Origin: Oceanispirochaeta sp.
Lineage (GTDB): Bacteria > Spirochaetota > Spirochaetia > DSM-2461
NCBI GenBank assembly: GCA_963666275.2
Contig: CAXXOA010000003.1
Coordinates: 192,001 to 256,000, forward strand
DNA: 64,000 nucleotides
Direction of reading: 5' to 3'
Part shown: positions 1 through 27,510 of the stretch, piece by piece
Layout: every line of letters begins with the position of its first letter
Numbering within the stretch: the first letter of the stretch is position 1
Position numbers and translations under genes: made by a program
Notes under the pieces: generated by a model
Seen by the model: only the letters and a program-made list of their open reading frames with translations
Told to the model about the DNA's origin: nothing
Databases searched by the model: none

Positions 1-732
1 CCTACAGACATCGGCACACCCCAAGGCGGGCCCTTATCACCTCTGCTTTCCAATATCCTCCTTGATCGGTTGGATATGGAACTGGAGAGAAGAAATGTGA
101 GGTTCGCACGGTATGCAGATGACACTATCCTTTTAACGAAGAGATTGTGTGATGCTAGGAAGATCCTACAGGAAGTTTCAATATTTCTGGTAAGGAAATT
201 GAAATTGCTAGTGAATCAGGAGAAAACGAAAGTTGCAAAGATAAGGGAGTGCAGTTTCCTGGGATTCACATTCAAGGGTAAGAAGATTCGCTGGACAGAG
301 TCGTCCTTTGAGGATTTTCGGTATCATCTGAAATATCTGACAAGGCGTTCCTGGGGTGTTTCCATGGAATACAGAATCGGGAAACTCAATGAGTATATCC
401 GGGGCTGGATGAACTACTATGGGATCTCCCAATATTACAGCCCTATACAGAATCTTGATGACTGGCTCCGTAGGAGGATTCGCATGTGCTACTGGAAACA
501 GTGGCGATATCCCAGAACGAAAGTCAGGAAACTGATGGAACTGGGAATTCCGAAAGATTTTGCCATTATCACCGGTGCCAGTAGTAAATCCTATTGGCAT
601 CTCTCCAAGTCTTACGCTACCAATGCAGCTATGTCCAATAAATGGCTGGAAGAGCAGGGATTGGTCAATATCAAATATCTATGGTGTAAAGCCCAGGGAT
701 ATATCGTAACCGTCAAAACTACAGGCCCTTGA
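1..732 (+). CDS. ltrA: Group II intron reverse transcriptase/maturase, 5'-truncated by the window edge; last 8 aa come from the IS66 end
   Basis: Frame is open from base 1: GTPQGGPLSPLLSNI, RYADD, FLGF and maturase motif GWMNYY. No C-terminal endonuclease domain. The native stop (TGA 3036-3038) lies just beyond the IS. Confidence 0.95.
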   Translation, partial: PTDIGTPQGGPLSPLLSNILLDRLDMELERRNVRFARYADDTILLTKRLCDARKILQEVSIFLVRKLKLLVNQEKTKVAKIRECSFLGFTFKGKKIRWTESSFEDFRYHLKYLTRRSWGVSMEYRIGKLNEYIRGWMNYYGISQYYSPIQNLDDWLRRRIRMCYWKQWRYPRTKVRKLMELGIPKDFAIITGASSKSYWHLSKSYATNAAMSNKWLEEQGLVNIKYLWCKAQGYIVTVKTTGP

Positions 733-2260
733 AAGCCCTTTTCTGAATAGCTTCCCGGTCACAGTTCCAGGGAAGCAGTTTTTCTTTGTCAAAATCATCT
801 TCCATGACTGCGACCTGATCGAATATCCACCATAGATATCCATAGGGATTCAGATCATTCACTTTCGCCGTCTCAATCAAAGAGTAAAAGAGACTACTGG
901 ATTTAGCACCCCTCGGAGATCCGGAGAACAGCCAGTTTTTCCGACCAACCACAAAAGGTTTAATCGCCCGTTCAGCGGCATTGTTATCCGGCGTCAGGTA
1001 GGGAGACTCAATAAAACGGACGATTTTCTCCCACTGGCCCAAGATATAGGCTATCGCTTTTCCCGTCGCCGTAGACGGCCTAACCTTTTCAGCCTTGTCA
1101 TCCAGCCAGGATTTGAGGTCATCCAGAAGCGGCTGAACCAGCTCTTTTCTCCTGTTCAAGAACTTCATATCATCCAAATGCTCATCCCGGAGATTACTTT
1201 CAATCCGGTAAATATCTCTGATTTTCTTTACAGCAATTTGAGCGCTTCCGGCTTTCTTTGAAGCCTTCGCGGCATCTACAAATTTCCGACGGGCATGTGC
1301 CAGACAACCGACATGAATGATATCTTCGTTGCCGTCCAGTGCCGTTTCATAAGCCTGATAGCCGTCAGTCTGGAGATATCCCGAATATCCCTCCAAAAAC
1401 GCCTTGGCATGCTGAGAACTTCTTGTTTCATGGTAGTCGTAGATCACAAGGGGTGAGTCCGGAGGCCCTCCCCGGGCAAGCCACATGTAGGATTTTGAGG
1501 TGTCCGGACGGTTTTCTTCTCCCAGAACCTGCACTGTGGTTTCATCCATCTGGATAACAGGGCCTTCTTTGATCTTCTTCCTAAACATATCCATAAGGAA
1601 TTGGAGCCTTTCTGCTGATTTATTTGTCCAATTGGACATGTCTTGGCGGCTGATATGAGCGCCGATACGCTCAAAGCGCTTCTCCTGCCTGTAAAACGGC
1701 AGATGATCACAGAACTTATTCACCAAGATAAAGGCTAAAAGCCCCGAAGTAACGATACTACCGGGAAGGATGGAAGGAGCCGCCGGGGCTACTCTGAAAA
1801 CCGGTTTGTCTTCATCACCGGAACCCTCACAGTTCCGGCAGGCATACTTGTAACGGATATGACGCTCCACGTATATCTGCTCGGGGATATGCTGAAGCCT
1901 TTCACTGACAATCTCATCAATCTTATCCAGTTGATGCCCGCAGCCGCAGATCTTTTCCTCTTCGGGAATGTCATGGATGATGTCCTCCCGGGGGATGTTG
2001 CTGTCCAAAGGCTTTCGTCCTGCCTTTGTTCGGCTATGTGCGGGAACTGTTATCTGATCATCTGCTGCGAATTCTTCCTCAGAAGGAGCCTCTTCTTCAA
2101 ACAGTTCCTTCTGGTTAGGATCGATTTTCTCGCTGGAACGTCCAAACTTGCGATGAAGAGCCAGGCGGAGTTCTTCTGTTAATTGCTCAATCTGACCAGA
2201 CATACTCTGGATGAGTTCAAGTGCTTTCTCTGGTGATTTTTGTATCTCCGCCAAGTCCAT
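719..2260 (-). CDS. tnpC: IS66 DDE transposase TnpC
   Basis: Coiled-coil with FGRSSEK, zinc finger, KFCDHLPFYRQ, MDET, LQTDGY, CLAHARRKF, DNNAAERAIK motifs. Confidence 0.96.
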   Translation of the reverse strand: MDLAEIQKSPEKALELIQSMSGQIEQLTEELRLALHRKFGRSSEKIDPNQKELFEEEAPSEEEFAADDQITVPAHSRTKAGRKPLDSNIPREDIIHDIPEEEKICGCGHQLDKIDEIVSERLQHIPEQIYVERHIRYKYACRNCEGSGDEDKPVFRVAPAAPSILPGSIVTSGLLAFILVNKFCDHLPFYRQEKRFERIGAHISRQDMSNWTNKSAERLQFLMDMFRKKIKEGPVIQMDETTVQVLGEENRPDTSKSYMWLARGGPPDSPLVIYDYHETRSSQHAKAFLEGYSGYLQTDGYQAYETALDGNEDIIHVGCLAHARRKFVDAAKASKKAGSAQIAVKKIRDIYRIESNLRDEHLDDMKFLNRRKELVQPLLDDLKSWLDDKAEKVRPSTATGKAIAYILGQWEKIVRFIESPYLTPDNNAAERAIKPFVVGRKNWLFSGSPRGAKSSSLFYSLIETAKVNDLNPYGYLWWIFDQVAVMEDDFDKEKLLPWNCDREAIQKRAFKGL

Positions 2261-2301
2261 GAGAAAATTCTAACATGTTTGAATTCCATTGGGAAGATGG
2301 T

Positions 2302-2649
2302 TTAGACAATCTCTTCATAACTGAGAGTTTGATGAGTATGCCAGAAGTCAATACCTTCCAGGAGCATTTTCAACTGTTCCTGGGATATCTGCCTGGCTTG
2401 CTCTTCTGAATCCGGCCAGGGGTATTTTCCTTTTTCCAGGCGCTTCTGCCAGAGACAGAATCCGTTGCGATCCCAGTAAATGCACTTTATCAGCTTGCGG
2501 TCCCGGCTGCAAAAGAGGAAAAGGCAACCGGAACCAGGGTTAAGTTCCATTTCCTCCTGGGTGATAATGGATAAACCATTGACCTGTTTCCGCATATCGG
2601 TGATACCAGGTCTGACGTAGATTTGAATGCTGGTAAAATCCGGAATCAT
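2302..2649 (-). CDS. tnpB: IS66 accessory protein TnpB
   Basis: TDMRK..NGL, FLFCSR, YWDRNGFCLWQKRLEKG motifs. Confidence 0.95.
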   Translation of the reverse strand: MIPDFTSIQIYVRPGITDMRKQVNGLSIITQEEMELNPGSGCLFLFCSRDRKLIKCIYWDRNGFCLWQKRLEKGKYPWPDSEEQARQISQEQLKMLLEGIDFWHTHQTLSYEEIV

Positions 2650-2954
2650 TTTAGGATCTCTTTTAAATCGGCGACAAGACGAATCAGCGAATGAGAATCG
2701 TAATCTGATGGAATATTGATCTTATGCCCGGAGGGGTATTCGATTGAAAATGGGCTTCCTGTAGACGCCTTCAAAACTACTGGAATCCTCACAAGCCCTT
2801 TTTCCTTCTCTACTGCTGATTCCTTGCGGATTTTCATTCTCCAATAGTCGAAGGTTGAAACGGGGATGCTATTCTTCAGGCAGAACTCTGTTCGGTTTAA
2901 ACTGCTCTTCTCCCATTCATTGATTTTTCGTTTCCAAATGTCTTTTTTTTCCAT
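2646..2954 (-). CDS. tnpA: IS66 accessory protein TnpA (HTH)
   Basis: W..S.L...EFC....I..STFDYWR pattern. ATG at 2954 preceded by AAGGAG. Confidence 0.88.
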   Translation of the reverse strand: MEKKDIWKRKINEWEKSSLNRTEFCLKNSIPVSTFDYWRMKIRKESAVEKEKGLVRIPVVLKASTGSPFSIEYPSGHKINIPSDYDSHSLIRLVADLKEILK

Positions 2955-3069
2955 GCAGTAAATCTCCTTGTAGAAATTGTGCATGGAATTCAGATTACAT
3001 CGTAGGGCATAAGAAATTGACGGTTACGATATATCTGATCAAATCAGGATTTCGTTTGCTCCATGGAGT

Positions 3070-3140
3070 GAACCGCCCCGTGCGGACCCGCATGCGGGGT
3101 GGTGTGGGGGCTGGAGGTTAAAAGCCTCCGGCTACCCGAT
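3070..3140 (+). ncRNA. Group II intron catalytic domains V and VI
   Basis: Short DV stem-loop with CGC triad typical of IIC introns. DVI stem GGGGGCTGGAGG/CCTCCGGCT-A-CCC, terminal AT. Confidence 0.92.
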
Positions 3141-3218
3141 TTATGTATTTCTTTTTGGGAATCTCATTATTTGCATGTCTCACCCCTCATTTTTGGGTAA
3201 GATTTTGGAGTTATTTCA

Positions 3219-3830
3219 TCAGACTCCTTTGCTACTTAAGATAAATTCACAAATTTCATTATCATTCAGCATCTTATCTCGGTCGATTAATTTTATAGTT
3301 TCTGTTTTTGTAAAATAACTCTGTTTGATACTTTTCTGATTTTCGAAAACTTTAAGATACCCATTGTTAATGTCATCCCAATTCAATGTTTTTTCATAAA
3401 AAGAATTATCTTTACTAGCAAAAGGCCTACTTCTTGTCATTATGCAAATTGTCACATCATACTTGTCTTGCAGTTTTGAATAAAGCCTATGATGTATATC
3501 ATATATAAGCGATAACTCGAATTCATCTAAACCTGAAAGTTCCCCATAAATTAATGCGGAGATATAGCTACGATCCATTACTATATTAGTATCTGAATAA
3601 AGCATTGTTTCGTATAGATCAACGGTATGAGATATTGTGTGAAGAAGTTGCCGTTCAAATGGTGATATTGAAGTTTTTCCCTTTACAATACCACGTAGAA
3701 AACCTAGAGTATTACTTGCGCTTGGTTGCTGAAGAATAGAGGCATTTATCATTGTTGATAGTTGTTTAGAAATTGTAGATTTACCAAGATTATCGGCAGA
3801 TTCTAAAATCACTAGTTTATGTTTATCCAC
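3219..3830 (-). CDS. P-loop nucleotide kinase, thymidylate-kinase-like
   Basis: LVILESADNLGKST P-loop, MDRSYISALIYG (TMPK DR motif). Likely GTG start at 3830 overlapping the upstream stop; the ORF-track start at 3962 overlaps the upstream gene by 140 bp. Confidence 0.8.
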   Translation of the reverse strand: MDKHKLVILESADNLGKSTISKQLSTMINASILQQPSASNTLGFLRGIVKGKTSISPFERQLLHTISHTVDLYETMLYSDTNIVMDRSYISALIYGELSGLDEFELSLIYDIHHRLYSKLQDKYDVTICIMTRSRPFASKDNSFYEKTLNWDDINNGYLKVFENQKSIKQSYFTKTETIKLIDRDKMLNDNEICEFILSSKGV

Positions 3831-5847
3831 CGTTCTTGCCCTCCACTCCTTTAATACCTTGTAGAATGAGTAAAATAATCTCATCAATAAACTTACTATT
3901 GAAAAGTATTCGGTTTTCCTCTTCTGAAAGTCCATTGTTTTCTGAAAGACCTGCGATTCCAATATTACTTATTTCTTGTACAATTGATTCATAGCTAATA
4001 TCTTTCTCTTCTGAATCTAACTCAAATAAGTCACTAATTTCTTTGTAGCCAGCGTTATGATGTAATTGCCACTCTTTTGTTAATTCTTCAGGAATAGTAC
4101 CACTTACTAATAATTCACATACCTTGGATGTAACACCTCCAAAACCTCCAAGCAAATACAATGGTTTTTTTTCTCTTAAAGAAATAATTATTTCCTCGAA
4201 AACACCAGGATACTTACCCTTGTAACCAGAAAAGCGACCTCCTGCAGAAATTCGATAATTGCACTGCCCAATCATTTCTTTACGCATCTTAGTTAAACAT
4301 AGACTCCATGCAAAGCAGTTTATCGCACCGACAGGACGTAGAAATATTTCTTTATCATGGTTTTTCTGGACTTTTTCTGATGGCTCAACCTTAATAATTT
4401 TTACCACCTTATTATTTTTTGCATTCCAATCCAAAGTAGGTTCATCAATATTTGTGTAAATAGGCCATGCTAAATAATTTTGAATTTTTGGCGTGGATGC
4501 CTGTAATCGATCTTGCACAACTTTTGCCTCTTCGCAAAGAAATTCTGAAAATCCTCCTGGACGAAGATCACCACCATAAACAACAGTAGCATCTCGAAAA
4601 AGTAAATGGCGTGCAATAGTTTGAGATAGAGAAATCAAATGTTTATTAGTTTGCCCAATATTTAGCAATTCCTCAGGTTCAGGATCTGATATAGATATTC
4701 CTATCGAAATTCCAGCAAAGGCTTTTAACTCCAATGTAAGGGGAGTACAAGCAATAATTCCTAATGGTTCAATACATTTATGCTCTATTCCATATACTGG
4801 AGGATCGGGATAAATGATTTTTGAGAACTTAGAATATATTGAGTCTCCGGAATTTGAAAGTAAATTGGTTATGTCAGACAATTCTGGAGGTCGGACCAAT
4901 AACATCGTTGATCCGTCATCATGTATACTTAATAAATCTTTGTAATAATTGATTTTTAGTGTTTCGAGTAGTGCGGTCTCAAGAATAGTATGTATATCAA
5001 GCTCAGAGATAGGTAAGCTAGAGTCTAAATGAACAGATGGTACATTGACAGAATGTGGAAATGCTCGATCTTCGTTTACTTTTAAATAGTTCACAACGAT
5101 TATTGGGAGACTATTCTCTTTGGCTATTAATATCTCTTTTTGACACCAATATCTCATAGAATAATTATCAGATTGAATTGAAATCAATGTGGAATCTTTT
5201 ACGGAATTTTCAATTTCATCTTCAAAATCATGAGAAATATGGATATCATATGCATCGTAAAAACGATGCATTAACGTATTATCAATAAATGATTTTAGTG
5301 ATTTAGCCGTTTCAACGGCCCAATCATCGTATTTCGTATGACTTAAAAATAACTTTATAGCACTATCATTACCTGGAATGTTTCCACCGTTAGAAAAAGC
5401 AAATCGATAGATTTCGTGAGTTGCTGAAATGAAAAACTGTTGGGTAATATATTGTTTGTCAAAGTCATAAAGCCTTATAAAATTTAACTTTTCATATTTC
5501 TTATTCAACCCAAATCCGAATTCTGAGTTAATAGCAATTGGAATAACTTGTTGGTCATCAACGGAAAGAAATGTGTCATAATAAGCTCTCCAATCAACAT
5601 TCCCAGTCACATACTTGTTGGAGAAACAAAAAATTATAGTTTTTTTTGCTTTTGAATCAATTCTTTTGGGTATAGCATTGTCATTCGAAGTTCGAAAGAA
5701 TACAGGAAGATTCATACTTCTAGAAAATGGTCTTGAAATATCTTTTTGAAATCTGTCAAAACAATACTCTACTAAAGGCTTTACAATAGCTTCATCAGCT
5801 GAATGCCAAACAAAATAGATTGCAAGTGGCTGCCTAAAAATTTGCAT
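3823..5847 (-). CDS. TIR + SLOG domain protein (N-terminal degenerate TIR-like region, central TIR, C-terminal SLOG)
   Basis: Central TIR: LFLSHTKYD...YWCQKEI with Glu. SLOG: IGISIS, VVYGGDLRPGGF, LTKMRKEM, SAGG...YKGKYPGVFEE, PLYLLGGFGG. Confidence 0.82.
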   Translation of the reverse strand: MQIFRQPLAIYFVWHSADEAIVKPLVEYCFDRFQKDISRPFSRSMNLPVFFRTSNDNAIPKRIDSKAKKTIIFCFSNKYVTGNVDWRAYYDTFLSVDDQQVIPIAINSEFGFGLNKKYEKLNFIRLYDFDKQYITQQFFISATHEIYRFAFSNGGNIPGNDSAIKLFLSHTKYDDWAVETAKSLKSFIDNTLMHRFYDAYDIHISHDFEDEIENSVKDSTLISIQSDNYSMRYWCQKEILIAKENSLPIIVVNYLKVNEDRAFPHSVNVPSVHLDSSLPISELDIHTILETALLETLKINYYKDLLSIHDDGSTMLLVRPPELSDITNLLSNSGDSIYSKFSKIIYPDPPVYGIEHKCIEPLGIIACTPLTLELKAFAGISIGISISDPEPEELLNIGQTNKHLISLSQTIARHLLFRDATVVYGGDLRPGGFSEFLCEEAKVVQDRLQASTPKIQNYLAWPIYTNIDEPTLDWNAKNNKVVKIIKVEPSEKVQKNHDKEIFLRPVGAINCFAWSLCLTKMRKEMIGQCNYRISAGGRFSGYKGKYPGVFEEIIISLREKKPLYLLGGFGGVTSKVCELLVSGTIPEELTKEWQLHHNAGYKEISDLFELDSEEKDISYESIVQEISNIGIAGLSENNGLSEEENRILFNSKFIDEIILLILQGIKGVEGKNGG

Positions 5848-6426
5848 TTAATAACTCCACTTTGTTTGAGACTCTGATCGATTATTAGCAAATGACGGAT
5901 AACTGTTATCTGGAATATCAATTTTTCGTCTATTAAAAGCATCATCTATCCAATTTTGCACTATATATGGATTAATATCCCAATTATATATTTTTGCGTA
6001 GCCGCACTTTATATTATCATATAAGCGAGGTGGAATAGTGAAGGGGTTATATTGACCACCATTCTCACAACTTTTGTTTTCCCATGAATACTCACAATTA
6101 TAGGATGGTAAGAGTATTCCTATTAACCCTGTACGACTATTATACTGGGTTTTCCTGATACTAGAGGAAATTTCCCAGTCTACATGTTTTCTTTTCCACG
6201 TATCTTTACCAATCAAGACAATAGCAACTGTAGCGTCTTTTATAAATTTATCGCGTATTTGCTGACGTATAGTGTCGGTTTGCAATAAAGGGTTAATATC
6301 TCCTTCTTCAACTGATTTTGATATAAATCCATCAAATGAATTCGTGAATTTTTGAATAAATTGCTTTTTATAAGATTCATCATTTTTATGATGATAACTT
6401 ATGAATACTTTGTGTTTTTTTATCAT
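5848..6426 (-). CDS. ThsB-like TIR protein (DUF1863 family)
   Basis: HKVFISYHH.ND, IRDKFIKDATVAIVLIG..TWKRKHVDWEI, PPRL.DN. ATG at 6426 or GTG at 6435. Confidence 0.88.
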   Translation of the reverse strand: MIKKHKVFISYHHKNDESYKKQFIQKFTNSFDGFISKSVEEGDINPLLQTDTIRQQIRDKFIKDATVAIVLIGKDTWKRKHVDWEISSSIRKTQYNSRTGLIGILLPSYNCEYSWENKSCENGGQYNPFTIPPRLYDNIKCGYAKIYNWDINPYIVQNWIDDAFNRRKIDIPDNSYPSFANNRSESQTKWSY

Positions 6427-6435
6427 TACATCCAC

Positions 6436-7062
6436 CTATGATTGACCATCATATCTAATAAATTTCTCTTCTTGAAACATGGAAGGGAATCCAATTAGCC
6501 CATTATTATAGTTCTGTTGAATATATTCTAAAATTTGCAATGCGATCTTTTCATCCACATATCTGTGTCCTGGACCTCTTTTGCAAAGTTTTGTTGAAAT
6601 TTTTAATGGTATTTCAAACGCATCTTTCCCAAAGTAATAGAAATGACTTGAGATTAGTACCATGTCAGTAGTTGAAGTGTCTCGTTTCAAATTATGCTGA
6701 TTTATTTCGCCATTTTCGAGACTATGATGAGAATTATCTTGATGCCAATCACCATCATTTTTTTGGTGATATATATTGTCTCCATACATTTTCTTCAGAC
6801 TGCCATTCATCACCGGTTTTTTGTATTGAAAATCTGGATTTTTGTAGTATTCATTAAATGTCATTTTGGCCGTTACTTGCATAGTATAAATCAACCTAGG
6901 CGATTGTTGGTGTATGATGGATGATGTGCCAAATATCCAGTCGCCTATTTTTGCACTCTTTCTAATACTCGGCTTACAAGTTGCTAAAGTGCAATGTTTT
7001 CCAAATGGATTGGGTGCAAAACCAAAATCTCGAGGTATAACATATGAATAATACATAGCCAT
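6436..7062 (-). CDS. Nmad2 (nucleotide-modification-associated domain 2) protein
   Basis: YSYVIPRDFGFAPNPFG..CTLATCKP.IRK.AKIGDWIFG, GDNIY and LIS..FYYFG signatures. TAATG stop/start overlap at 7062. Confidence 0.85.
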   Translation of the reverse strand: MAMYYSYVIPRDFGFAPNPFGKHCTLATCKPSIRKSAKIGDWIFGTSSIIHQQSPRLIYTMQVTAKMTFNEYYKNPDFQYKKPVMNGSLKKMYGDNIYHQKNDGDWHQDNSHHSLENGEINQHNLKRDTSTTDMVLISSHFYYFGKDAFEIPLKISTKLCKRGPGHRYVDEKIALQILEYIQQNYNNGLIGFPSMFQEEKFIRYDGQS

Positions 7063-7535
7063 TAACAATTGCTCCTGCCAATCCCATATCTACTTTGCCA
7101 AGGGCCATTCCCTTCAGAATTATCAAAGTCATTGCAAATTCCGTTTATTGCATCAATAATTTTTCCTGAATTCCACCCTACTAAAGCATCTCCAAATTTC
7201 TGGAAAGATTCTGGGACATCGGAATCCTTTGCTCCTTGCATAAAAACTCCTACAATAGGCTTTCCTTGTTTTGCTGCCTGCTCAATTTCCCAATTAACCC
7301 ATTCTCTAGTATGCGTTTGCGGACCGATCAAGACAACTGTTGTTCCCGCCCAACTTATTCCATCTCTCAATAATCCTTTAATGTATTCAGGGTTTTTTGC
7401 ATCATTAGGCTTTGTGCTATCAATTGAACTATTCCTCAGAGTATAACCTTTATCGCCGAGCATCTTCTTTAAAGCTTGAACGCTTTCATCATCCTTTCCA
7501 TAATGGCTGATAAACACATTTTTATTCTTCATCAA
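7062..7535 (-). CDS. ThsB-like TIR protein (DUF1863 family)
   Basis: NVFISH..KD, LR.GISWAGTTVVLIG.QTHTREWVNWEI..A...GKPIVGV. Confidence 0.88.
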   Translation of the reverse strand: MMKNKNVFISHYGKDDESVQALKKMLGDKGYTLRNSSIDSTKPNDAKNPEYIKGLLRDGISWAGTTVVLIGPQTHTREWVNWEIEQAAKQGKPIVGVFMQGAKDSDVPESFQKFGDALVGWNSGKIIDAINGICNDFDNSEGNGPWQSRYGIGRSNC

Positions 7536-8152
7536 TATCCTCCTTTCAAGAATAAAGAATTTAATGATGGATTGTGAAACTTTATACCATTTTGCTTATG
7601 CGTTTTTGAATACAATGCAAGAGCCCAATCATGAAGGAAATCATTTTCAGATTCAAAAAATTCTTCAGATTCTCGCATCCTAATAGATTTTTCCCATTCT
7701 TCAAGTTTTTTTAATTGTTGATCAAAAGATGTTAGCGACTCAAATTTACTTTTGTACACATATGATTCATTTGAGCATGAAACCACTTTGCTTAAAGATA
7801 CTATCTTTTCTCTAAATTCTTCATAATAATGAAGATTATTTGTGATATGGTAATAAGAGCCAATTTCATAACCCAAAATTCCAGCAAAATATTCTAGCAT
7901 GAACATGTTATTAAACATATTAATACCAGTTGCACCCCAAAGAAAATCATTAGATCTCATATGAACATAAAGATTTAGCTTTCCTTGAACATCTCGAATA
8001 AACTGGATAGATCTAGTGCATGGGAAATCTTTTGTCTCCTTGATTATACCATTATTAAAACAATCTTTGACTGGATCACCTATATCAATTATTGCCTGTC
8101 TTGTGAACGCATCACGTTTAAAAGACTCAATTACATAACTAAACTGTAAGCG

Positions 8153-9724
8153 TCAAATAAACACAGGCCCTTTATCAGCCGTAATGTTATCTTTTAAATT
8201 CCATGGTAATAATTCTTCCCATTCTTGTTCATTATTGATGAACGGAGCTTTAGAGAAAACATAATGCAGATAATCAAAGGGATTCAAATTATTTTGTTTT
8301 GCAGTCTCAATCAGAGAATACATCCCGCAGGAACTGTCTGCCCCTTTGGGATTCCCGGAAAATAGCCAGTTTTTCCTCCCCAGAACAAAAGGACGAATAG
8401 CATTTTCACTGCCATTATTATCCGGAGTCAGATAAGGACTTTCCAGATATCGGATCAAATAATCCCATTGATTCAATGCATAATGAACAGCCTTACCTAA
8501 AGCACTTTCAGGTAAAACATTTTCAGCCCTTTTATCCAACCATTGTTTAAATTTTTCAAGAATGGGTTCGGCCTTGCTTTTCCGTTGTTCCTGGAACTCT
8601 TCAGGAGATAATTTCTTACTCCTTAGATCATTTTCCAAGGCATAGAGCTTCTTGATATGCTTGATTCCTTCCAGAGCACTTTTAGATTTTTTACTGGCTT
8701 TATCAGCCTCAAAGAACTTCCTTCTGGCATGTGCAAAGCAGCCTACCAGATGTATATCGGGATTGCCTTCTACCGCGGTTTTGTATCCTTGATATCCATC
8801 GGTTTGCAGATACCCTTTAAAACTAGTGAGAAAATTCTTTGCATATTCCGATGCCCGTGTTGGATGGTACTCATAATAAACAGCTTGTTGTCCCGGAGGA
8901 CCGCCTCTGGACAGCCACATATAGGATTTCTGTTTGTTATCCCGACCTGGTTCATTCAGAACCTGTACGGTTGTTTCATCCATTTGGATCACCGGACCGG
9001 ATTTTATGTGGGTTTTCAGCAGTTCAAAGAGAGGGAGAAGAGCTTCATAAGCCTTTTTCTGCCAATTACTCATATTCTGACGGCTGATTCGGGCTCCCAT
9101 ACGCTCAAACCGCTTTTCCTGTCGGTAAAAAGGAAGATGGTCCACGTACTTGTTTACCATCAGAAATGCCAACAGACCGGGAGTGACAATCCCTTTGGGG
9201 ATGATGGAAGGCTCCGGAGGGGCAATCTTTACAGCAGGAACATCTTCATCGGCGGTTCCTTCGCAATTACCACAGGCATATTTTAACCGGACAATCCGTT
9301 CTACCCAGATACGGGGAGGGATCACATGCAGTTTCTCAGAGATTTCTTCTCCGATTTTTTTCAGTTCTGTTCCGCAGGCACAGTTTTTTTCATCTTCAGG
9401 AATATCAATAATCCGTTCTTTGCGGGGAAGGTTCTCATCCAGAGGCTTTCTGCCTGTTTTCTTACGCTTGTAAGAATCTATTTGCTGTTCTTCCGAACAG
9501 TCTTCCTCAGGAGTCTGTGGTTCATCAGAATCAAATAATTCAATCTGATCAGGGATATTTTCTGCTCTTCGACCGAATTGACGATGCAATGCCAAGGCCA
9601 ACTTCTCTTCAAGAAGCTGATATTTCTTTTCCCAGTTCTGATTCTGGGCTTCTGATTCAGCAAGTTGCTTTTTCAGAGATAAAAATTCTTTTTGTGCTTC
9701 CAACGGAAGAGAGGAAATATCCAT
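8153..9724 (-). CDS. tnpC: IS66 transposase TnpC
   Basis: KYVDHLPFYRQ, MDET, LQTDGY, CFAHARRKF, DNNGSENAIR. Confidence 0.96.
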   Translation of the reverse strand: MDISSLPLEAQKEFLSLKKQLAESEAQNQNWEKKYQLLEEKLALALHRQFGRRAENIPDQIELFDSDEPQTPEEDCSEEQQIDSYKRKKTGRKPLDENLPRKERIIDIPEDEKNCACGTELKKIGEEISEKLHVIPPRIWVERIVRLKYACGNCEGTADEDVPAVKIAPPEPSIIPKGIVTPGLLAFLMVNKYVDHLPFYRQEKRFERMGARISRQNMSNWQKKAYEALLPLFELLKTHIKSGPVIQMDETTVQVLNEPGRDNKQKSYMWLSRGGPPGQQAVYYEYHPTRASEYAKNFLTSFKGYLQTDGYQGYKTAVEGNPDIHLVGCFAHARRKFFEADKASKKSKSALEGIKHIKKLYALENDLRSKKLSPEEFQEQRKSKAEPILEKFKQWLDKRAENVLPESALGKAVHYALNQWDYLIRYLESPYLTPDNNGSENAIRPFVLGRKNWLFSGNPKGADSSCGMYSLIETAKQNNLNPFDYLHYVFSKAPFINNEQEWEELLPWNLKDNITADKGPVFI

Positions 9725-9765
9725 AAGAGAATTTTAACAAAGACTGGAATTTGAGTAAATTCCTT

Positions 9766-10113
9766 TCAGGCAATTTCTGAATATTTCAATGTTTCGTGGG
9801 CTTTCCAGAAGTCTATACCCTTCAGAAGCATAGAGAGTTCTTCAAAGCTGATGGCTTTAGCAGCTTCTTCCGTATCTGGCCAGGGGAAGCGGTGCTTCTC
9901 CAGACGCTTCTGCCAGAGGCAGAAGCCTGTCTGATCCCAGTAAAGGGCTTTCAGAATCCGTCTCTGTTTATTACAGAACATAAAAAGAGAGCCGCAAAAA
10001 GGATCAAGAGACATTTCATCCTGAACTTCTACCGCCAAACCATTAATAGCTTTCCGCATATCGGTAACACCGGGTCGGATAAATATCTTGATTTGAGAGA
10101 AATCCTTAATCAT
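9766..10113 (-). CDS. tnpB: IS66 accessory protein TnpB
   Basis: TDMRKAINGL, YWDQTGFCLWQKRLEK. Confidence 0.95.
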   Translation of the reverse strand: MIKDFSQIKIFIRPGVTDMRKAINGLAVEVQDEMSLDPFCGSLFMFCNKQRRILKALYWDQTGFCLWQKRLEKHRFPWPDTEEAAKAISFEELSMLLKGIDFWKAHETLKYSEIA

Positions 10114-10408
10114 TGCACTGTACCAGGGTCTGAAGCAGTTTTTTCAATGTGATTGTATCAAAGTTCCGATCCAGTTTTATCCGGTAGGCATTCCATTGTA
10201 ACTCAATGGATGAGCCTTTGACTGTTTCCTTGGGCAATTTAACAGGAACTTCAACCAAGGATGGAGTTTTACGGTCATACCGCTTTTGCCATCCGTGGAA
10301 AGTCGTTGTTTTCAGTTTTTTATCCCGGCAGAACTGACTTACAGATTTTCCGGACTGTTTCCACTCTGCCAAAAGAGCGTAGCGCTGATCCATTGTGTAT
10401 TGTTTCAT
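10106..10408 (-). CDS. tnpA: IS66 accessory protein TnpA
   Basis: WKQSGKSVSQFCR...TFHGW pattern, first gene of the element. Confidence 0.88.
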   Translation of the reverse strand: MKQYTMDQRYALLAEWKQSGKSVSQFCRDKKLKTTTFHGWQKRYDRKTPSLVEVPVKLPKETVKGSSIELQWNAYRIKLDRNFDTITLKKLLQTLVQCND

Positions 10409-10880
10409 AGTAATTCTCCTGATGGAGATTGTACCGGGATGACTTGGAGATTTTTAGATGCGGTTTATTTGACGCTTACACTAAACTGATCGATTATATC
10501 CTGAGCACTATTATTTTGAGTATAACCAATCTGATAATCTGTATTTTCACCATTAAATTTTCGAAAACGTGGACCATATCCTGCTCTCATCCAGATACCA
10601 TCATCTGAAAACTGTTTTAAATTATTGCAATAGTAAGAGCTCATTTCAATGTCATTTCTACCAGCAGCTAGCCATAGAGACTCTGCAAATGGTAGATATT
10701 TATTCCATTCTCTTTCGGGTACAGTAATGATTCTTGCACAAGGATTTGATATTTGTACAATGATAGGTTCAGGTAATTCGTAACAAACTTTCCCACGAGT
10801 CGCTCGCTTTACACCTTCTTTCAGAAGAACTGCTGACATTTTTACAAGAAACTCATTTAAACTATCGTATTTAAATTTTG

Positions 10881-11861
10881 TTACATCCATTCGTTCACCT
10901 GGGGATAGTTAAGATTCCATTTTGGTGGAAAAAATAAATCTATCTTTGTTTGATTTATTTTAAATTTCTGTTTAATTCTTTTATTACCTACAGATAATTC
11001 TGGTAATTTTACTCGAAGGAATTTATCTGTTTCACAAAAACAATTTTGAAGATCAATGAGAGTAGGTTCTCTTCCAAATAAATTATTAAAATAATAGCCA
11101 TACTTTTCTCTATATTTTTCAATATTATCAGCTGTGTAACGAATTGCATCCTCGTAACTATAACCATCAAGATCAGAAAAGCACTTCTTTATACCACGGA
11201 TTGCACCAATTCCAGCTTTTACAAATGAATTCTCATCAAAATCAAATACATCAGAATAATTGAGGTCAATTGCGTATTGGTATGCTAAAAATGGACCTAT
11301 AAATGAACACTTAATAAGTATTTCGTACAGCTCTTTTAATGTTTTACACTTTAGCATCTTGTTAATTACTGGTGTATCAATAATTTCTGTTTTAAGCATT
11401 TGAAGCCATTTCTCATGCTTATAAAAATACCCTTTAGTATAGTTTCGGTGTGTACCTGTCATCAAATATGCTGCACTGAATATTGGACGATTCTTAATCC
11501 TTTCACTCAGGATATTCGATATTTCAGTAATATTGAAATTCTGAGTTGTGATAAATCCTAAATTATGCTCAATAAATTCCCAAGTATCGATTCTGTTGAA
11601 AATTTTAAAAAGAAGAATACGTAGAATTGTATCTTGAGCAGAAAAGTTACCCTTAGGAGAATAAATTACTTGGCGAACAAGATATTGACTAACCCGATCG
11701 CAAACACGATATACATTTGTAAATTTATACTCTGATAAAATGGGATCTGTAGTCAGATTGTTAAATTGATTGCAGGTTTCATTGTATCTATGCCAGAATA
11801 TATTCATTCGTTCTTGCATGAAATAAAAATAGTATTGAAATGCTTCATCACGAATCTTCAT
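10881..11861 (-). CDS. aGPT-Pplase1 / 5-hmdU DNA kinase helical-domain family protein (HhH-glycosylase-like base hypermodification protein)
   Basis: F..ER..IF..R, DPIL.EYKFTNVYR..DRVSQYL, FKIFNRIDTW, IGPFLAYQYAIDLNYS, AG.GA.RG, LIDLQNCFCETDK motifs. ATG at 11861 with AGGA upstream. Confidence 0.85.
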   Translation of the reverse strand: MKIRDEAFQYYFYFMQERMNIFWHRYNETCNQFNNLTTDPILSEYKFTNVYRVCDRVSQYLVRQVIYSPKGNFSAQDTILRILLFKIFNRIDTWEFIEHNLGFITTQNFNITEISNILSERIKNRPIFSAAYLMTGTHRNYTKGYFYKHEKWLQMLKTEIIDTPVINKMLKCKTLKELYEILIKCSFIGPFLAYQYAIDLNYSDVFDFDENSFVKAGIGAIRGIKKCFSDLDGYSYEDAIRYTADNIEKYREKYGYYFNNLFGREPTLIDLQNCFCETDKFLRVKLPELSVGNKRIKQKFKINQTKIDLFFPPKWNLNYPQVNEWM

Positions 11862-11936
11862 TGTCTTTCCTAAAATACTTTTGTATTTGTAACCTGATGT
11901 TTTAACTTTTCTCAATCTTTACGATATCAAATATAT

Positions 11937-12110
11937 ACATAACTATCTGATCACCTGCGGCCCGGCCTGGCCGAAGGACAGGTATTGGCGTTCTTCTTGC
12001 CAACATGGTAAAACATCTTTACCATATTGAGAAGCGATTATTTACTATTGAGTGGGAATATCAGCAAGAAGTATGACAATAGGGGTGACTGGTGCATCAG
12101 CATGTTATGT
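11937..12110 (-). other. Integron attC recombination site (174 bp)
   Basis: Minus strand: R'' ACATAAC, 5 nt spacer, L'' GATGCACC (one extra base) ... L' GGTGATC, 5 nt spacer, R' GTTATGT. Interior forms a long imperfect hairpin (TATTGGCGTTCTTCTTGC with GCAAGAAGTATGACAATA). Confidence 0.78.
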
Positions 12111-12196
12111 GAGCTTCCTTGGAGCAATTTTGCCCTAGATTCATATTTAATATTAATATTTACATTGTTTTCTATTGATCAACAGAGGACTGATTT

Positions 12197-12487
12197 ATGA
12201 AGAATAAGATAAAGATCTTCTTTTTAAAAATATTTCTTTACATGATCGGCATTTATGATTTCATGATGCTTCTATATGCGCTAGCAGTTATATTTCTAGG
12301 TGGGAATGGTATTACAGGGCTAAACAACATGCTCATAAAAACAGGGGGCAGTTATCGAGGTGTTGACCATTCTGTTGGTGCTGTAGTCATTGTTACTTTA
12401 ATAGTTCAAATTATGCTTATCAAAATAATTATTAGTAAAATAAAGGAATTAGAAGTTGATGTTAAAAAGGATATTTCTGATAACTAG
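12197..12487 (+). CDS. Small two-TM hypothetical protein (cassette)
   Basis: 96 aa, two hydrophobic helices, GAGGA RBS, AT-rich. Confidence 0.65.
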   Translation: MKNKIKIFFLKIFLYMIGIYDFMMLLYALAVIFLGGNGITGLNNMLIKTGGSYRGVDHSVGAVVIVTLIVQIMLIKIIISKIKELEVDVKKDISDN

Positions 12488-12557
12488 GTTTCTGTCTATT
12501 CATGAATTCCATGATAAGCTTATGTTAACTTAATTTTGTCGGCTAAGGAGTTATTCA

Positions 12558-12836
12558 ATGGTAACTGAATATGACATATCTAACATTCTACCTAGACTCA
12601 TAGGATCACTTAAAGAGATTTATGATCAAGAAATTCAGAATGGAAACACTGTAGTTGAGATTGCTGGAGGATGGCCTATGAAAAGGGTAAATATCTGGTT
12701 TGCAAAACCAATATCCTCTAAATATAAAAAACAGTTTCCTGATCTTATATATAAGTATCTAGGAGATCCAAAAGGAGATCTGGAATACTATATGGATAAA
12801 TTGAACGAAGCATTCATCGCTGCCAAGTTCTCATAA
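12558..12836 (+). CDS. Small hypothetical protein (cassette)
   Basis: 92 aa, strong AAGGAG RBS. No family recognised. Confidence 0.7.
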   Translation: MVTEYDISNILPRLIGSLKEIYDQEIQNGNTVVEIAGGWPMKRVNIWFAKPISSKYKKQFPDLIYKYLGDPKGDLEYYMDKLNEAFIAAKFS

Positions 12837-12879
12837 TGTACGTTCTGTCAATTATTGGTTTATATTAAAGGAAAAAATA

Positions 12880-13098
12880 ATGACACTTTCGGAAAAATTA
12901 CAAATTGTATTCTTTTCACTATTGCTATTAAATTTTTTTGTTGTTTTTATTAAGCATTGGAAAAAATCAATAAATAATATTTATGACATCAGAAATCAGC
13001 AAATTAGGCCTATAAAAAGCAATATTAAAATGCCGTCATTGAAAATTACTGTAATCCTTTTAATCATAAATTTTATATTACTAGTTATCAGATTTTAA
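12880..13098 (+). CDS. Small two-TM hypothetical protein (cassette)
   Basis: 72 aa, hydrophobic ends, AAGGA RBS. Confidence 0.55.
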   Translation: MTLSEKLQIVFFSLLLLNFFVVFIKHWKKSINNIYDIRNQQIRPIKSNIKMPSLKITVILLIINFILLVIRF

Positions 13099-13215
13099 TT
13101 TAGGGGAAATACTTAACATTGTCCCCATAATCGGTTACCGACAATCACCTATTCTGTCACTTTAGAATTTTTAAATTAACAAATTTATACTGAAAACTAC
13201 AAAAATTTTGAGTCC

Positions 13216-13272
13216 ACATAACATTACTTATTATCCTGTTCAGTATAATTATCCCGTCTATGCAGTGATAAC
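13216..13272 (-). other. Putative attI-like end of the cassette array (continues at 15603-15680 beyond IS66 A2)
   Basis: Minus-strand core GTTATGTG at 13222-13215 is complementary to R'' of the attC at 12104-12111. No attC hairpin is evident on its right; instead repeated TTAT...ATAA motifs. Confidence 0.55.
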
Positions 13273-13285
13273 GTAACCGTCAAAA

Positions 13286-14827
13286 CTACAGGCCCTTGAA
13301 AGCCCTTTTCTGAATAGCTTCCCGGTCACAGTTCCAGGGAAGCAGTTTTTCTTTGTCAAAATCATCTTCCATGACTGCGACCTGATCGAATATCCACCAT
13401 AGATATCCATAGGGATTCAGATCATTCACTTTCGCCGTCTCAATCAAAGAGTAAAAGAGACTACTGGATTTAGCACCCCTCGGAGATCCGGAGAACAGCC
13501 AGTTTTTCCGACCAACCACAAAAGGTTTAATCGCCCGTTCAGCGGCATTGTTATCCGGCGTCAGGTAGGGAGACTCAATAAAACGGACGATTTTCTCCCA
13601 CTGGCCCAAGATATAGGCTATCGCTTTTCCCGTCGCCGTAGACGGCCTAACCTTTTCAGCCTTGTCATCCAGCCAGGATTTGAGGTCATCCAGAAGCGGC
13701 TGAACCAGCTCTTTTCTCCTGTTCAAGAACTTCATATCATCCAAATGCTCATCCCGGAGATTACTTTCAATCCGGTAAATATCTCTGATTTTCTTTACAG
13801 CAATTTGAGCGCTTCCGGCTTTCTTTGAAGCCTTCGCGGCATCTACAAATTTCCGACGGGCATGTGCCAGACAACCGACATGAATGATATCTTCGTTGCC
13901 GTCCAGTGCCGTTTCATAAGCCTGATAGCCGTCAGTCTGGAGATATCCCGAATATCCCTCCAAAAACGCCTTGGCATGCTGAGAACTTCTTGTTTCATGG
14001 TAGTCGTAGATCACAAGGGGTGAGTCCGGAGGCCCTCCCCGGGCAAGCCACATGTAGGATTTTGAGGTGTCCGGACGGTTTTCTTCTCCCAGAACCTGCA
14101 CTGTGGTTTCATCCATCTGGATAACAGGGCCTTCTTTGATCTTCTTCCTAAACATATCCATAAGGAATTGGAGCCTTTCTGCTGATTTATTTGTCCAATT
14201 GGACATGTCTTGGCGGCTGATATGAGCGCCGATACGCTCAAAGCGCTTCTCCTGCCTGTAAAACGGCAGATGATCACAGAACTTATTCACCAAGATAAAG
14301 GCTAAAAGCCCCGAAGTAACGATACTACCGGGAAGGATGGAAGGAGCCGCCGGGGCTACTCTGAAAACCGGTTTGTCTTCATCACCGGAACCCTCACAGT
14401 TCCGGCAGGCATACTTGTAACGGATATGACGCTCCACGTATATCTGCTCGGGGATATGCTGAAGCCTTTCACTGACAATCTCATCAATCTTATCCAGTTG
14501 ATGCCCGCAGCCGCAGATCTTTTCCTCTTCGGGAATGTCATGGATGATGTCCTCCCGGGGGATGTTGCTGTCCAAAGGCTTTCGTCCTGCCTTTGTTCGG
14601 CTATGTGCGGGAACTGTTATCTGATCATCTGCTGCGAATTCTTCCTCAGAAGGAGCCTCTTCTTCAAACAGTTCCTTCTGGTTAGGATCGATTTTCTCGC
14701 TGGAACGTCCAAACTTGCGATGAAGAGCCAGGCGGAGTTCTTCTGTTAATTGCTCAATCTGACCAGACATACTCTGGATGAGTTCAAGTGCTTTCTCTGG
14801 TGATTTTTGTATCTCCGCCAAGTCCAT
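13286..14827 (-). CDS. tnpC: IS66 transposase TnpC
   Basis: Protein identical to 719-2260. Confidence 0.96.
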   Translation of the reverse strand: MDLAEIQKSPEKALELIQSMSGQIEQLTEELRLALHRKFGRSSEKIDPNQKELFEEEAPSEEEFAADDQITVPAHSRTKAGRKPLDSNIPREDIIHDIPEEEKICGCGHQLDKIDEIVSERLQHIPEQIYVERHIRYKYACRNCEGSGDEDKPVFRVAPAAPSILPGSIVTSGLLAFILVNKFCDHLPFYRQEKRFERIGAHISRQDMSNWTNKSAERLQFLMDMFRKKIKEGPVIQMDETTVQVLGEENRPDTSKSYMWLARGGPPDSPLVIYDYHETRSSQHAKAFLEGYSGYLQTDGYQAYETALDGNEDIIHVGCLAHARRKFVDAAKASKKAGSAQIAVKKIRDIYRIESNLRDEHLDDMKFLNRRKELVQPLLDDLKSWLDDKAEKVRPSTATGKAIAYILGQWEKIVRFIESPYLTPDNNAAERAIKPFVVGRKNWLFSGSPRGAKSSSLFYSLIETAKVNDLNPYGYLWWIFDQVAVMEDDFDKEKLLPWNCDREAIQKRAFKGL

Positions 14828-14868
14828 GAGAAAATTCTAACATGTTTGAATTCCATTGGGAAGATGGT

Positions 14869-15216
14869 TTAGACAATCTCTTCATAACTGAGAGTTTGAT
14901 GAGTATGCCAGAAGTCAATACCTTCCAGGAGCATTTTCAACTGTTCCTGGGATATCTGCCTGGCTTGCTCTTCTGAATCCGGCCAGGGGTATTTTCCTTT
15001 TTCCAGGCGCTTCTGCCAGAGACAGAATCCGTTGCGATCCCAGTAAATGCACTTTATCAGCTTGCGGTCCCGGCTGCAAAAGAGGAAAAGGCAACCGGAA
15101 CCAGGGTTAAGTTCCATTTCCTCCTGGGTGATAATGGATAAACCATTGACCTGTTTCCGCATATCGGTGATACCAGGTCTGACGTAGATTTGAATGCTGG
15201 TAAAATCCGGAATCAT
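14869..15216 (-). CDS. tnpB: IS66 TnpB
   Basis: Identical to 2302-2649. Confidence 0.95.
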   Translation of the reverse strand: MIPDFTSIQIYVRPGITDMRKQVNGLSIITQEEMELNPGSGCLFLFCSRDRKLIKCIYWDRNGFCLWQKRLEKGKYPWPDSEEQARQISQEQLKMLLEGIDFWHTHQTLSYEEIV

Positions 15217-15521
15217 TTTAGGATCTCTTTTAAATCGGCGACAAGACGAATCAGCGAATGAGAATCGTAATCTGATGGAATATTGATCTTATGCCCGGAG
15301 GGGTATTCGATTGAAAATGGGCTTCCTGTAGACGCCTTCAAAACTACTGGAATCCTCACAAGCCCTTTTTCCTTCTCTACTGCTGATTCCTTGCGGATTT
15401 TCATTCTCCAATAGTCGAAGGTTGAAACGGGGATGCTATTCTTCAGGCAGAACTCTGTTCGGTTTAAACTGCTCTTCTCCCATTCATTGATTTTTCGTTT
15501 CCAAATGTCTTTTTTTTCCAT
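15213..15521 (-). CDS. tnpA: IS66 TnpA
   Basis: Identical to 2646-2954. Confidence 0.88.
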   Translation of the reverse strand: MEKKDIWKRKINEWEKSSLNRTEFCLKNSIPVSTFDYWRMKIRKESAVEKEKGLVRIPVVLKASTGSPFSIEYPSGHKINIPSDYDSHSLIRLVADLKEILK

Positions 15522-15955
15522 GCAGTAAATCTCCTTGTAGAAATTGTGCATGGAATTCAGATTACATCGTAGGGCATAAGAAATTGACGGTTACGTGATA
15601 ACTCTAAAAACCACAGTTATCTAGACATTCCCGCAGTATAACCAGGCAAATAAACAAGTTATCCTGAACAGTATAATAAACCCATTACCCCTCAATCACC
15701 TTAACTTTTTATAATTTCCCAATCCCGGCAACCCGAATCAGGAGCAAACCCATCTCCCCAAATAGGGATAGGAGGGGAGCCGCAGGCTGTGTTCGAAAGA
15801 ACACCGGAGCCCCGGATAGCCCGGGCCCCGCAGGGGCATTTGCCTTAAAAAATGTAAGGGATAAATCGGATGATTTCTGCAGGAAGGGGAGAAGGAAAAG
15901 GGGAGGGACAGGTCCGGCCGGATAACTCTGGGGGAGGGAACTCCGGACGGGGGGC

Positions 15956-16007
15956 GGAAAGCTAGTACAGATTGTTTATATAGAGAGTGGTACTCCCGGC
16001 AGAGGAG
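15956..16007 (-). repeat. 52 bp copy of the 3' end of the FG-GAP gene (matches 25825-25876)
   Basis: GGAAAGCTAGTACAGATTGTT(T/C)ATATAGAGAGTGGTACTCCCGGCAGAGGAG, one mismatch. Confidence 0.9.
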
Positions 16008-16223
16008 ATCAGAACTCAAGATCTTTACATGTGTGGGTTCAGTAGAAGATTGGCTGTCTTTATTTGGAATATTATTCGGCTTTAAATTGAGATACAATAT
16101 TTTCCAGGTAAAAAGAAATATTACTTATCAATCTGTTTAGATAACCAAAAAGAACAACAAGAGGTCCTGAAAATATATGAGTATTGCAAAAAATCAATTA
16201 AAGTGGGGTGAAAAAGAAAAAGC

Positions 16224-16253
16224 TTGACAAAAAAGGATAACAAAACTTAAGAT
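16224..16253 (+). promoter_or_regulatory. Putative sigma70 promoter for the dehydrogenase gene
   Basis: TTGACA-18 nt-TAAGAT. The spacer contains GATAACAAAA, also seen at 17550. Confidence 0.5.
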
Positions 16254-16331
16254 GACGTATTATTGTCAATACAAATCATTTTTATACCAGAAAAATTTCT
16301 ACTGTAATGGAGAATCCGGAGGGAGAGTCAT

Positions 16332-25685: not shown

Positions 25686-25830
25686 GGGGGCGTTTCCCTG
25701 TTTTTTCTGTATCCGCCGGGCCCTGCAGGGGGGTCTGCCTGAATAGCAAAGGTGTATAGAGCCGGTACAGGGGGGGACAGGCCCTGCAGGAGAAGCCTAT
25801 GGGAAGGCTCTCCGGCAGGGGAAAGGAAAG

Positions 25831-27312: not shown

Positions 27313-27370
27313 AAAAACCTCTTTCTTTGTCCGGGATTTTTATGACAATGTGCCGTATTTTCCTTTTCCG

Positions 27371-27401
27371 GTCGTCCAGAAACGTGTTTTAGGACTTTTT
27401 T
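27371..27401. promoter_or_regulatory. 31 bp conserved upstream element, copy 1 (identical to 29038-29068)
   Basis: GTCGTCCAGAAACGTGTTTTAGGACTTTTTT, containing imperfect palindrome GTCCagAAAC-gt-GTTTtaGGAC, about 58 bp upstream of both FG-GAP starts. Confidence 0.6.
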
Positions 27402-27510
27402 TTGTGTAAAAGAGCCTTGAGACAGGCAATTGAGAGGTTCTGAGAGCCCGTATCAGACGGGACAGGCCGGGAAATCAGGCAGAACCTGATCCCCGGCAGG
27501 GCGATACCGG

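Follow-up and report, generated by a model that had tools for sequence, protein, structure and literature searches.

The accessible parts of the integron literature describe gene cassettes as small. Cury et al. (PMC4889954) put the largest known cassettes at about 2 kb and cluster attC recombination sites within a limit of 4 kb, and ACID (PMC2674596) gives 200-800 bp for most cassettes and ascribes those above 2 kb to insertions. Among 783 integron defence systems, the available text of Darracq et al. (bioRxiv 10.1101/2024.07.02.601686) records none with more than two components. Here we examine a seven-gene operon on the minus strand of a 64-kb stretch of an Oceanispirochaeta sp. genome (G000:C3:192001-256000, hereafter the window; G000 is this genome, C1-C3 are its contigs, and bare positions are those of the window). 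The operon is very probably one integron gene cassette, built from a defence-island operon that gained an attC and was integrated by the integrase IntI. Like the integron defence cassettes described so far (bioRxiv 10.1101/2024.07.02.601686; 10.1101/2024.07.02.601719, as far as their available text goes), it is bounded by attC sites, lies in a chromosomal array and carries predicted anti-phage genes including TIR genes; it differs from those of Darracq et al. in holding seven genes in 6.46 kb as against at most two components. A size of about 6.5 kb is about three times the once-assumed upper limit for cassettes. Our literature search returned no report of a cassette of this size, and supplementary cassette tables (e.g. 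that of Darracq et al.) could hold large ones. Such a unit would probably go uncalled, because attC sites are clustered only within 4 kb in the procedure of Cury et al.

The unit and the elements at its borders are as follows.

3141..11942, minus strand: cassette core, which carries the seven-gene operon and runs between the crossover that follows G at 11943 and the R'' box; 6,460 bp once the insertion sequence (IS) IS66-B is left out
11937..12110, minus strand: intact 174-nt attC of the upstream neighbour, whose R' box (11943-11937) forms the giant cassette's 5' end
3141..3218, minus strand: trailer of 78 bp, closing with the R'' box that belongs to the cassette's own attC
G000:C3:190680-190779, left of the window: remainder of the cassette's own attC, with the attC body at 190687-190779
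1..3140, plus strand: group II intron in the R'' box, on the attC bottom strand, beginning 1,221 bp left of the window; its reverse transcriptase (RT) is broken near the 3' end by IS66-A
706..3027, minus strand: IS66-A inside the intron, with an 8-bp target duplication
8146..10479, minus strand: IS66-B inside gene 2, with an 8-bp target duplication at 8138-8145 and 10480-10487; close copies lie elsewhere in the genome

The initial annotation had proposed, from the sequence of the window, that the whole operon is a single, very large cassette of about 6.5 kb without IS66-B, and the two flanking attC sites, the matching ends and the absence of an internal attC all agree with this. Taken from 3141 to 11943 without IS66-B, the unit measures 6,461 bp and holds seven genes; with its own attC body the full cassette comes to 13,256 bp, or to 6,554 bp when mobile elements are taken out. 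Its GC content is 32.5%, compared with 47.8% for the genome. The right end reads GTTATGTAT on the minus strand (11943-11935), a sequence with a single occurrence in the window when both strands are searched, and the left end reads TTATGTAT on the plus strand (3141-3148), directly past the intron 3' end at 3140 and 78 bp beyond the last stop codon at 3219. These end positions were those already proposed, and they are borne out; the proposed complementarity of 8 nt also holds, and grows to 9 nt when the G of the intron 5' exon is counted. The neighbouring cassette has a matching pair of its own, as had been noted, over 8 nt. The complementarity is specific to the cassette: the longest match in 54 cross-pairings that use one end of the unit is 7 nt, and none reaches 8.

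Complementary ends are the usual signature of cassettes in this genus, beyond chance. Within this genome an interval's two ends match each other over at least 8 nt in 18 of 28 cases and over at least 9 nt in 15, and when the ends of different cassettes are cross-paired a 9-nt match is found in 7 of 756 pairs. Relatives were sampled as 18 regions from six genomes, picked partly for wide attC gaps and hence biased to large units; there, 51 of the 74 intervals have ends that match over at least 8 nt (median core 1,202 bp). The 17 other end-matched cassettes of this genome span 897-2,645 bp (median 1,518). An earlier statement that typical cassettes stay below about 1 kb does not apply to this genus, in which the median is about 1.2-1.5 kb and several reach 3-4.7 kb. 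The multi-gene cassettes with 9-nt ends in relatives include a Hachiman-like pair of HamA and a helicase (L176:9222-12251, 3,040 bp), an ABC three-component system (L179:7693-11317, 3,635 bp), three genes with no assigned function (L178:2600-7074, 4,474 bp), a C5 methylase with an ATPase and a third gene (L180:6147-10807, 4,671 bp), and an RT with an AAA/TOPRIM protein (L190:2844-6263); a few other 3-kb intervals appear to hold IS genes. The seven-gene unit is the largest seen, at the top of this genus-wide tail. A 5,601-bp interval on C1 was considered as a second giant cassette and rejected, as it consists of several cassettes with IS-destroyed attC sites. At the other extreme, cassettes devoid of open reading frames (ORFs), with cores of about 225-310 bp, recur in the arrays of relatives (L187, L184, L181 and L175).

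The right attC folds at -36 kcal/mol (z -6.4), and none of 200 shuffled sequences is equally stable; copies 93% identical to it occur in two other arrays. On the left, joining the intron exons, which the initial annotation had expected to restore an attC with its R and L boxes, rebuilds a 110-nt hairpin at -23.1 kcal/mol (z -5.8, with none of 300 shuffles as stable). In the rebuilt site the R boxes pair, an L stem forms, and two bases 6 bp apart are extrahelical on the R''/L'' arm of the bottom strand. In the circular form, where the unit's own 5' end replaces that of the neighbour, the stem closes fully and the fold improves from -23.1 to -26.9 kcal/mol, a gain of 3.8. The probability that AAC:GTT is paired is 0.96-0.99. 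There are 12 copies of the intron 3' end, 99-100% identical, and IS66-A recurs nearby, so that recombination between intron copies, or a mis-assembly, might be imagined to have joined the operon to the array; this is hardly credible, as the right junction with its intact attC is unique sequence and the R'' box stands on the operon's side of the intron, which makes the end match independent of the intron join. A joining of this kind could alter which attC body belongs to the cassette, not the presence of cassette ends.

Between these sites lie the leader and the seven genes, in order of transcription.

11862..11942, minus strand: leader of 81-82 bp ahead of the first ATG; it includes an AGGA ribosome-binding motif
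10881..11861, minus strand: gene 1, HMUDK_hel (PF18723, Pfam E 4e-83), 326 aa
10488..10890, minus strand: gene 2, 5' part, thymidylate-synthase/hydroxymethylase-like
7532..8145, minus strand: gene 2, 3' part
7062..7532, minus strand: gene 3, ThsB-like TIR of DS-4 type, 156 aa (PF08937; PADLOC ThsB1 E 5e-54)
6436..7062, minus strand: gene 4, Nmad2 (PF18753), 208 aa
5848..6426, minus strand: gene 5, second ThsB-like TIR, 192 aa
3823..5847, minus strand: gene 6, TIR plus SLOG (LD_cluster2), 674 aa, corresponding to two separate adjacent genes in E. coli loci
3219..3830, minus strand: gene 7, dTMP-kinase-like P-loop protein with a GTG start, 203 aa (PF02223 and TIGR00041 both weak, below cut-off), with a 44% identical relative in locus L039

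Successive genes are separated by -10, -1, -1, +9, 0 and -8 nt. Without IS66-B, gene 2 is an unbroken frame of 338 aa with a weak Pfam match to thymidylate synthase. The structure nearest to an intact homologue of gene 2 is a CMP hydroxymethylase, except that the homologue has Asn in place of Asp, a change that we take to point to a uracil substrate; no solved structure matched either gene 6 or the alignment of gene 1. The leader has no listed promoter consensus, and a promoter scan was uninformative (54 sites, against 42.9 +/- 5.5 in shuffles).

Internal attC sites were sought with a covariance model trained on nine intact sites of this genome and run over window positions 1-17000 with filters off. 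The only site found was the right attC, at 84.5 bits, itself a member of the training set. Inside the unit the best score was 8.3 bits on the attC strand and 10 bits on either strand; 16 held-out attC sites in other arrays scored 31.9-86.2 bits, and two visibly degraded ones 14.5-14.6 bits. A constrained-fold scan of the IS-free array, a method that misses degraded sites, and an nhmmer scan of the window likewise gave no internal attC. Moreover, attC sites of this genome are about 100-175 nt long and the widest intergenic gap in the unit is 9 nt, so there is no room for one. The earlier observation that no internal attC is visible is thus upheld by three kinds of search and by the gene spacing.

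Relatives of the operon were collected as 160 homologous loci, the best 80 from each of two sets, 104 loci of genomes and 343 of metagenomes. Homologues of genes 1-4 occur together in 55 of the 81 loci that have 5 kb on both sides. The closest of the 160, L092, aligns with the unit over 5,724 nt at 84.8% nucleotide identity, starting about 10 nt ahead of the first ATG and running through gene 6, and sits in a defence island with AAA/HNH and tyrosine recombinase genes; it shows no attC-like hairpin and no intI. Only the first few codons of gene 7 remain in it before a sequence resembling an IS66 end, and an apparent match to gene 7 within it was rejected as an artefact of an over-long ORF that overlaps gene 6. 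A Vibrio nigripulchritudo locus (L039) holds genes 1-4, 6 and 7 with no attC at the operon borders, and in L012 homology ends within gene 6. A generic hairpin scan, made on L092, L039 and L012, found nothing at the operon borders. Compared for any extension past the proposed boundaries, these three loci share genes that all lie within the unit. The operon is thus found as ordinary DNA of islands, and the cassette includes little beyond it. A search of 37 other genomes of the family, 22 of which are at least 90% complete, gave no gene 1.

The order of the genes bears on whether two or more smaller cassettes, for instance a DS-4-like one and a TIR/SLOG one, could have fused after loss of an internal attC. 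In E. coli the two modules do form separate operons, convergent to each other, and attC sites of this genome are often destroyed by introns or IS, which yields the false 5.6-kb interval on C1. Destroyed sites elsewhere, however, leave scars of 100-300 bp, far from the 9 nt of the largest gap here; genes 1-6 stand in the same order at the 85% identical, 5.7-kb non-integron locus; the kinase gene 7 lies beyond the TIR/SLOG genes as in L039; and the outer ends match each other. A fusion is largely refuted by these points, and we consider it highly improbable.

The same relatives raise a different possibility, that the island entered the array without IntI, by an illegitimate or IS-driven event into a small cassette, with the matching ends belonging to that older cassette or arising by chance. 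All close relatives seen are in defence islands, L092 lying between tyrosine recombinase genes, and the 82-bp leader is unalignable with that of L092, so that the short ends could derive from a host cassette. Such an event is nonetheless very unlikely: a transposase, integrase, terminal repeat or remnant ORF was seen at neither border, the genes have just 82 and 78 bp on their two sides, a 9-nt match has a chance of about 1%, and relatives contain several other multi-gene units of 3-4.7 kb with 9-nt matching ends. Its product, moreover, would still have the structure of a cassette.

Contigs from four runs were also compared with the region; these are low-depth pieces, and two of the runs (X7 and X8), which gave nearly identical tables, could represent a single data set. 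A contig of 1,325 bp in X4, a run from another study, spans gene 7, the trailer and 13 nt of an intron end with 19 differences, its trailer matching up to the R'' box at about 98.5% identity. A contig of X6 bridges the IS66-B site at about 97% identity, and an IS-free gene 2 therefore exists. Stretches that these contigs leave uncovered, among them the neighbouring cassette in X4, carry no weight here. Separately, relatives of gene 1 (77%) and gene 6 (67%), P0004 and P0124, are both recorded with a longest contig of 6,432 bp, near the cassette length, which may represent another cassette form.

Several observations weigh against a single IntI-integrated cassette. The genus's attC type and intI were found in none of the 160 loci (covariance model on five loci, nhmmer on all), and for this reason the cassette form is certain from this genome only; the attC model represents the family of this genome, and a blank on foreign loci leaves room for other attC types. 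The left junction abuts a repeated intron, and the attC body on its far side may differ from the original. Ends match over only 0-5 nt in the remaining 10 of the 28 intervals of this genome and are without a match in 23 of the 74 in relatives. Only some of these were inspected, the candidate causes being damaged sites, insertion sequences, missed sites and misplaced anchors; those inspected in this genome showed either a misplaced anchor or an end that an intron scar or IS had damaged. The fragmentary contigs, none of which spans the unit, contain no excised circle, second array position or empty site. Finally, in the available text, excision tests stop near 3 kb (PMC5371416), and for a V. cholerae cassette that an IS had lengthened to 4 kb the read count was 0 (bioRxiv 10.64898/2026.03.17.712381).

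The array that receives the unit begins with the following features.

12104..13221, minus strand: the array's first cassette, neighbour of the unit; three short ORFs lie on the opposite strand
13215..13262, minus strand: attI-like header, homologous to the site beside intI on contig C1
13273-15594: an IS66-A copy just beyond the attI-like header

The array has no intI beside it; the one intI of the genome, which is intact, lies on contig C1 (390 bits, above the TIGR02249 cut-off), and a homologous attI header starts five arrays (window 13215-13262; G000:C1:1063334; C1:1288086, minus strand; C2:1179974; C3:279776), which are, where intI is not adjacent, probably satellite platforms served in trans. 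Of 11 genomes of the genus, 10 have intI and all have this attC family. An array without an adjacent intI resembles the clusters of attC sites lacking integron-integrases (CALIN) of Cury et al. (PMC4889954, from the part available); the difference is that four such arrays each keep their own attI header like that beside the single intI, and they look like satellite platforms and not like broken-off fragments. One cassette family in these arrays has conserved ends, the same adjacent 174-nt attC and differing opposite-strand ORFs in the middle (window 12104-13221; G000:C3:278029-279386; G000:C2:1169973-1173754). The lagging-strand template can be assigned by the GC-skew rule. By GC skew it is predicted to be the C3 plus strand, which carries the attC bottom strands. 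Elsewhere in the window, at 23811-28980, lie genes for a secreted-looking repeat protein and two paralogous lipoproteins with many DVDGDGD repeats.

The intron matches Rfam RF00029, RF02001 and RF01998 and Pfam RVT_1 and GIIM, and a DNA search with it gave short ltrA matches only. Nine of the ten listed intron 5' starts are preceded by TTG and one by ATG, and TT follows most 3' ends. Lying antisense to the cassettes in the attC bottom strand, it resembles the group IIC-attC introns as the accessible text describes them (PMC3001079), a likeness drawn from the insertion site; the copy here differs in having its RT gene broken by IS66-A. Because the intron splits the cassette's attC, separating the R'' box from the rest by 4.4 kb, excision of the unit alone would be blocked, and the cassette should now be frozen, no longer excisable on its own. 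It is also partly damaged, since IS66-B breaks gene 2. Three arrays have at their far end only a short remnant of an intron 3' part, in the place where an attC is expected (G000:C3:182645-182668, C2:1165075-1165104, C1:1032446-1032512), and together with similar scars inside arrays these remnants suggest intron-linked deletions. Other elements have struck attC sites as well, namely a putative IS just inside the R'' box (G000:C1:1295350, C2:1166480) and a transposase with non-coding derivatives of about 300 bp at R' boxes (G000:C1:1296910-1301420).

The most probable history is the following. A complete defence-island operon would have gained an attC at the 3' end; the resulting circle, about 6.55 kb long, would have been integrated at the array's attI by the genome's single IntI acting in trans, and one further cassette would have been added in front of the giant one afterwards. 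A group II intron entered the cassette's attC, and an IS66 element broke gene 2. The large size was probably tolerated through two attC sites that fold almost fully into the paired form, with their bottom strands on the lagging-strand template. Loot et al. (PMC5371416, available part) report no length effect for two well-folding sites in this orientation with inserts up to 3,060 bp, and a long cassette may be workable here because the attC pair and its orientation match that setting, which extends to about 3 kb. As to how the attC was gained, the cassette may have been caught soon after birth from a whole polycistronic transcript, the RT of the attC-targeting intron now in its attC having fused the 6.4-kb message to an attC. 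The cassette ends hug the operon (82 bp and 78 bp), an 85% identical copy exists outside integrons and an intron sits in the attC, all of which would fit this origin; we nevertheless think it unlikely.

With respect to its cargo, the unit resembles DS-4, which the accessible part of the DefensePredictor paper (PMC13092281) describes as thymidylate synthase, kinase, HMUDK_hel, TIR and Nmad2 and lists as validated. Likewise, thymidylate-synthase-like, HMUDK_hel, TIR and Nmad2 genes stand here in one operon, gene 2 being interrupted; the differences are the gene order, the presence of a second TIR gene and a TIR-SLOG gene in the same operon, and the break of gene 2 by IS66-B. Compared with E. coli loci that have the gene order and size of DS-4, without being the exact DS-4 accessions, genes 1-4 are 30% (HMUDK_hel), 27-28%, 44-46% (TIR) and 53% (Nmad2) identical. 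A neighbouring E. coli module of TIR, TIR, TIR and SLOG genes aligns with gene 5 at 34-40% and with the two halves of gene 6 at 24 and 31%. Type III Thoeris (bioRxiv 10.64898/2025.12.03.692087, available part) similarly combines several TIR proteins with a SLOG-domain protein, and differs in that SLOG is here fused to a TIR protein; a match to NCBIfam ThcB4 fell below threshold (25.7, against a cut-off of 220). Judged from these alignments, the cargo is like DS-4 joined to a type III Thoeris-like module and a strict member of neither. In two E. coli loci (L172:2801-11428 and L173:2840-12111) a DS-4-type operon and a TIR/TIR/TIR/SLOG module lie side by side and convergent, near mobC and ardC, which suggests that the two modules travel together.

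The cargo probably acts as anti-phage defence. Two points count against the comparison on which this draws: the single listed result for DS-4 in the accessible text (PMC13092281) is a modest protection against lambda (-log efficiency of plating 0.93, with smaller plaques), and gene 7 is not homologous to the DS-4B-type dNMP kinase (BLASTP E 0.63; PF21448 against a weak PF02223). A chemistry in which the TIR proteins sense infection and make an ADP-ribose-derived signal read by SLOG, with genes 1, 2, 4 and 7 making or acting on modified uracil nucleotides, is possible, and we offer it tentatively.

Integrons have been thought to be limited to small, streamlined defence systems, with long cassettes recombining poorly. 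A seven-gene cassette of 6.5 kb, together with several of 3-4.7 kb in the same genus, Hachiman-like, Lamassu-like and methylase-ATPase ones among them, suggests that the size limit is lineage-dependent and is set in part by the 4-kb clustering rule of the detection program. The unit provides a natural substrate on which IntI recombination may be measured at twice the tested length of about 3 kb. More generally, a cassette and a close relative that is not a cassette bear on the open question of where cassettes come from. If birth from a transcript were the true origin, the donor-like locus and the cassette would form a matched pair for testing how cassettes are made.

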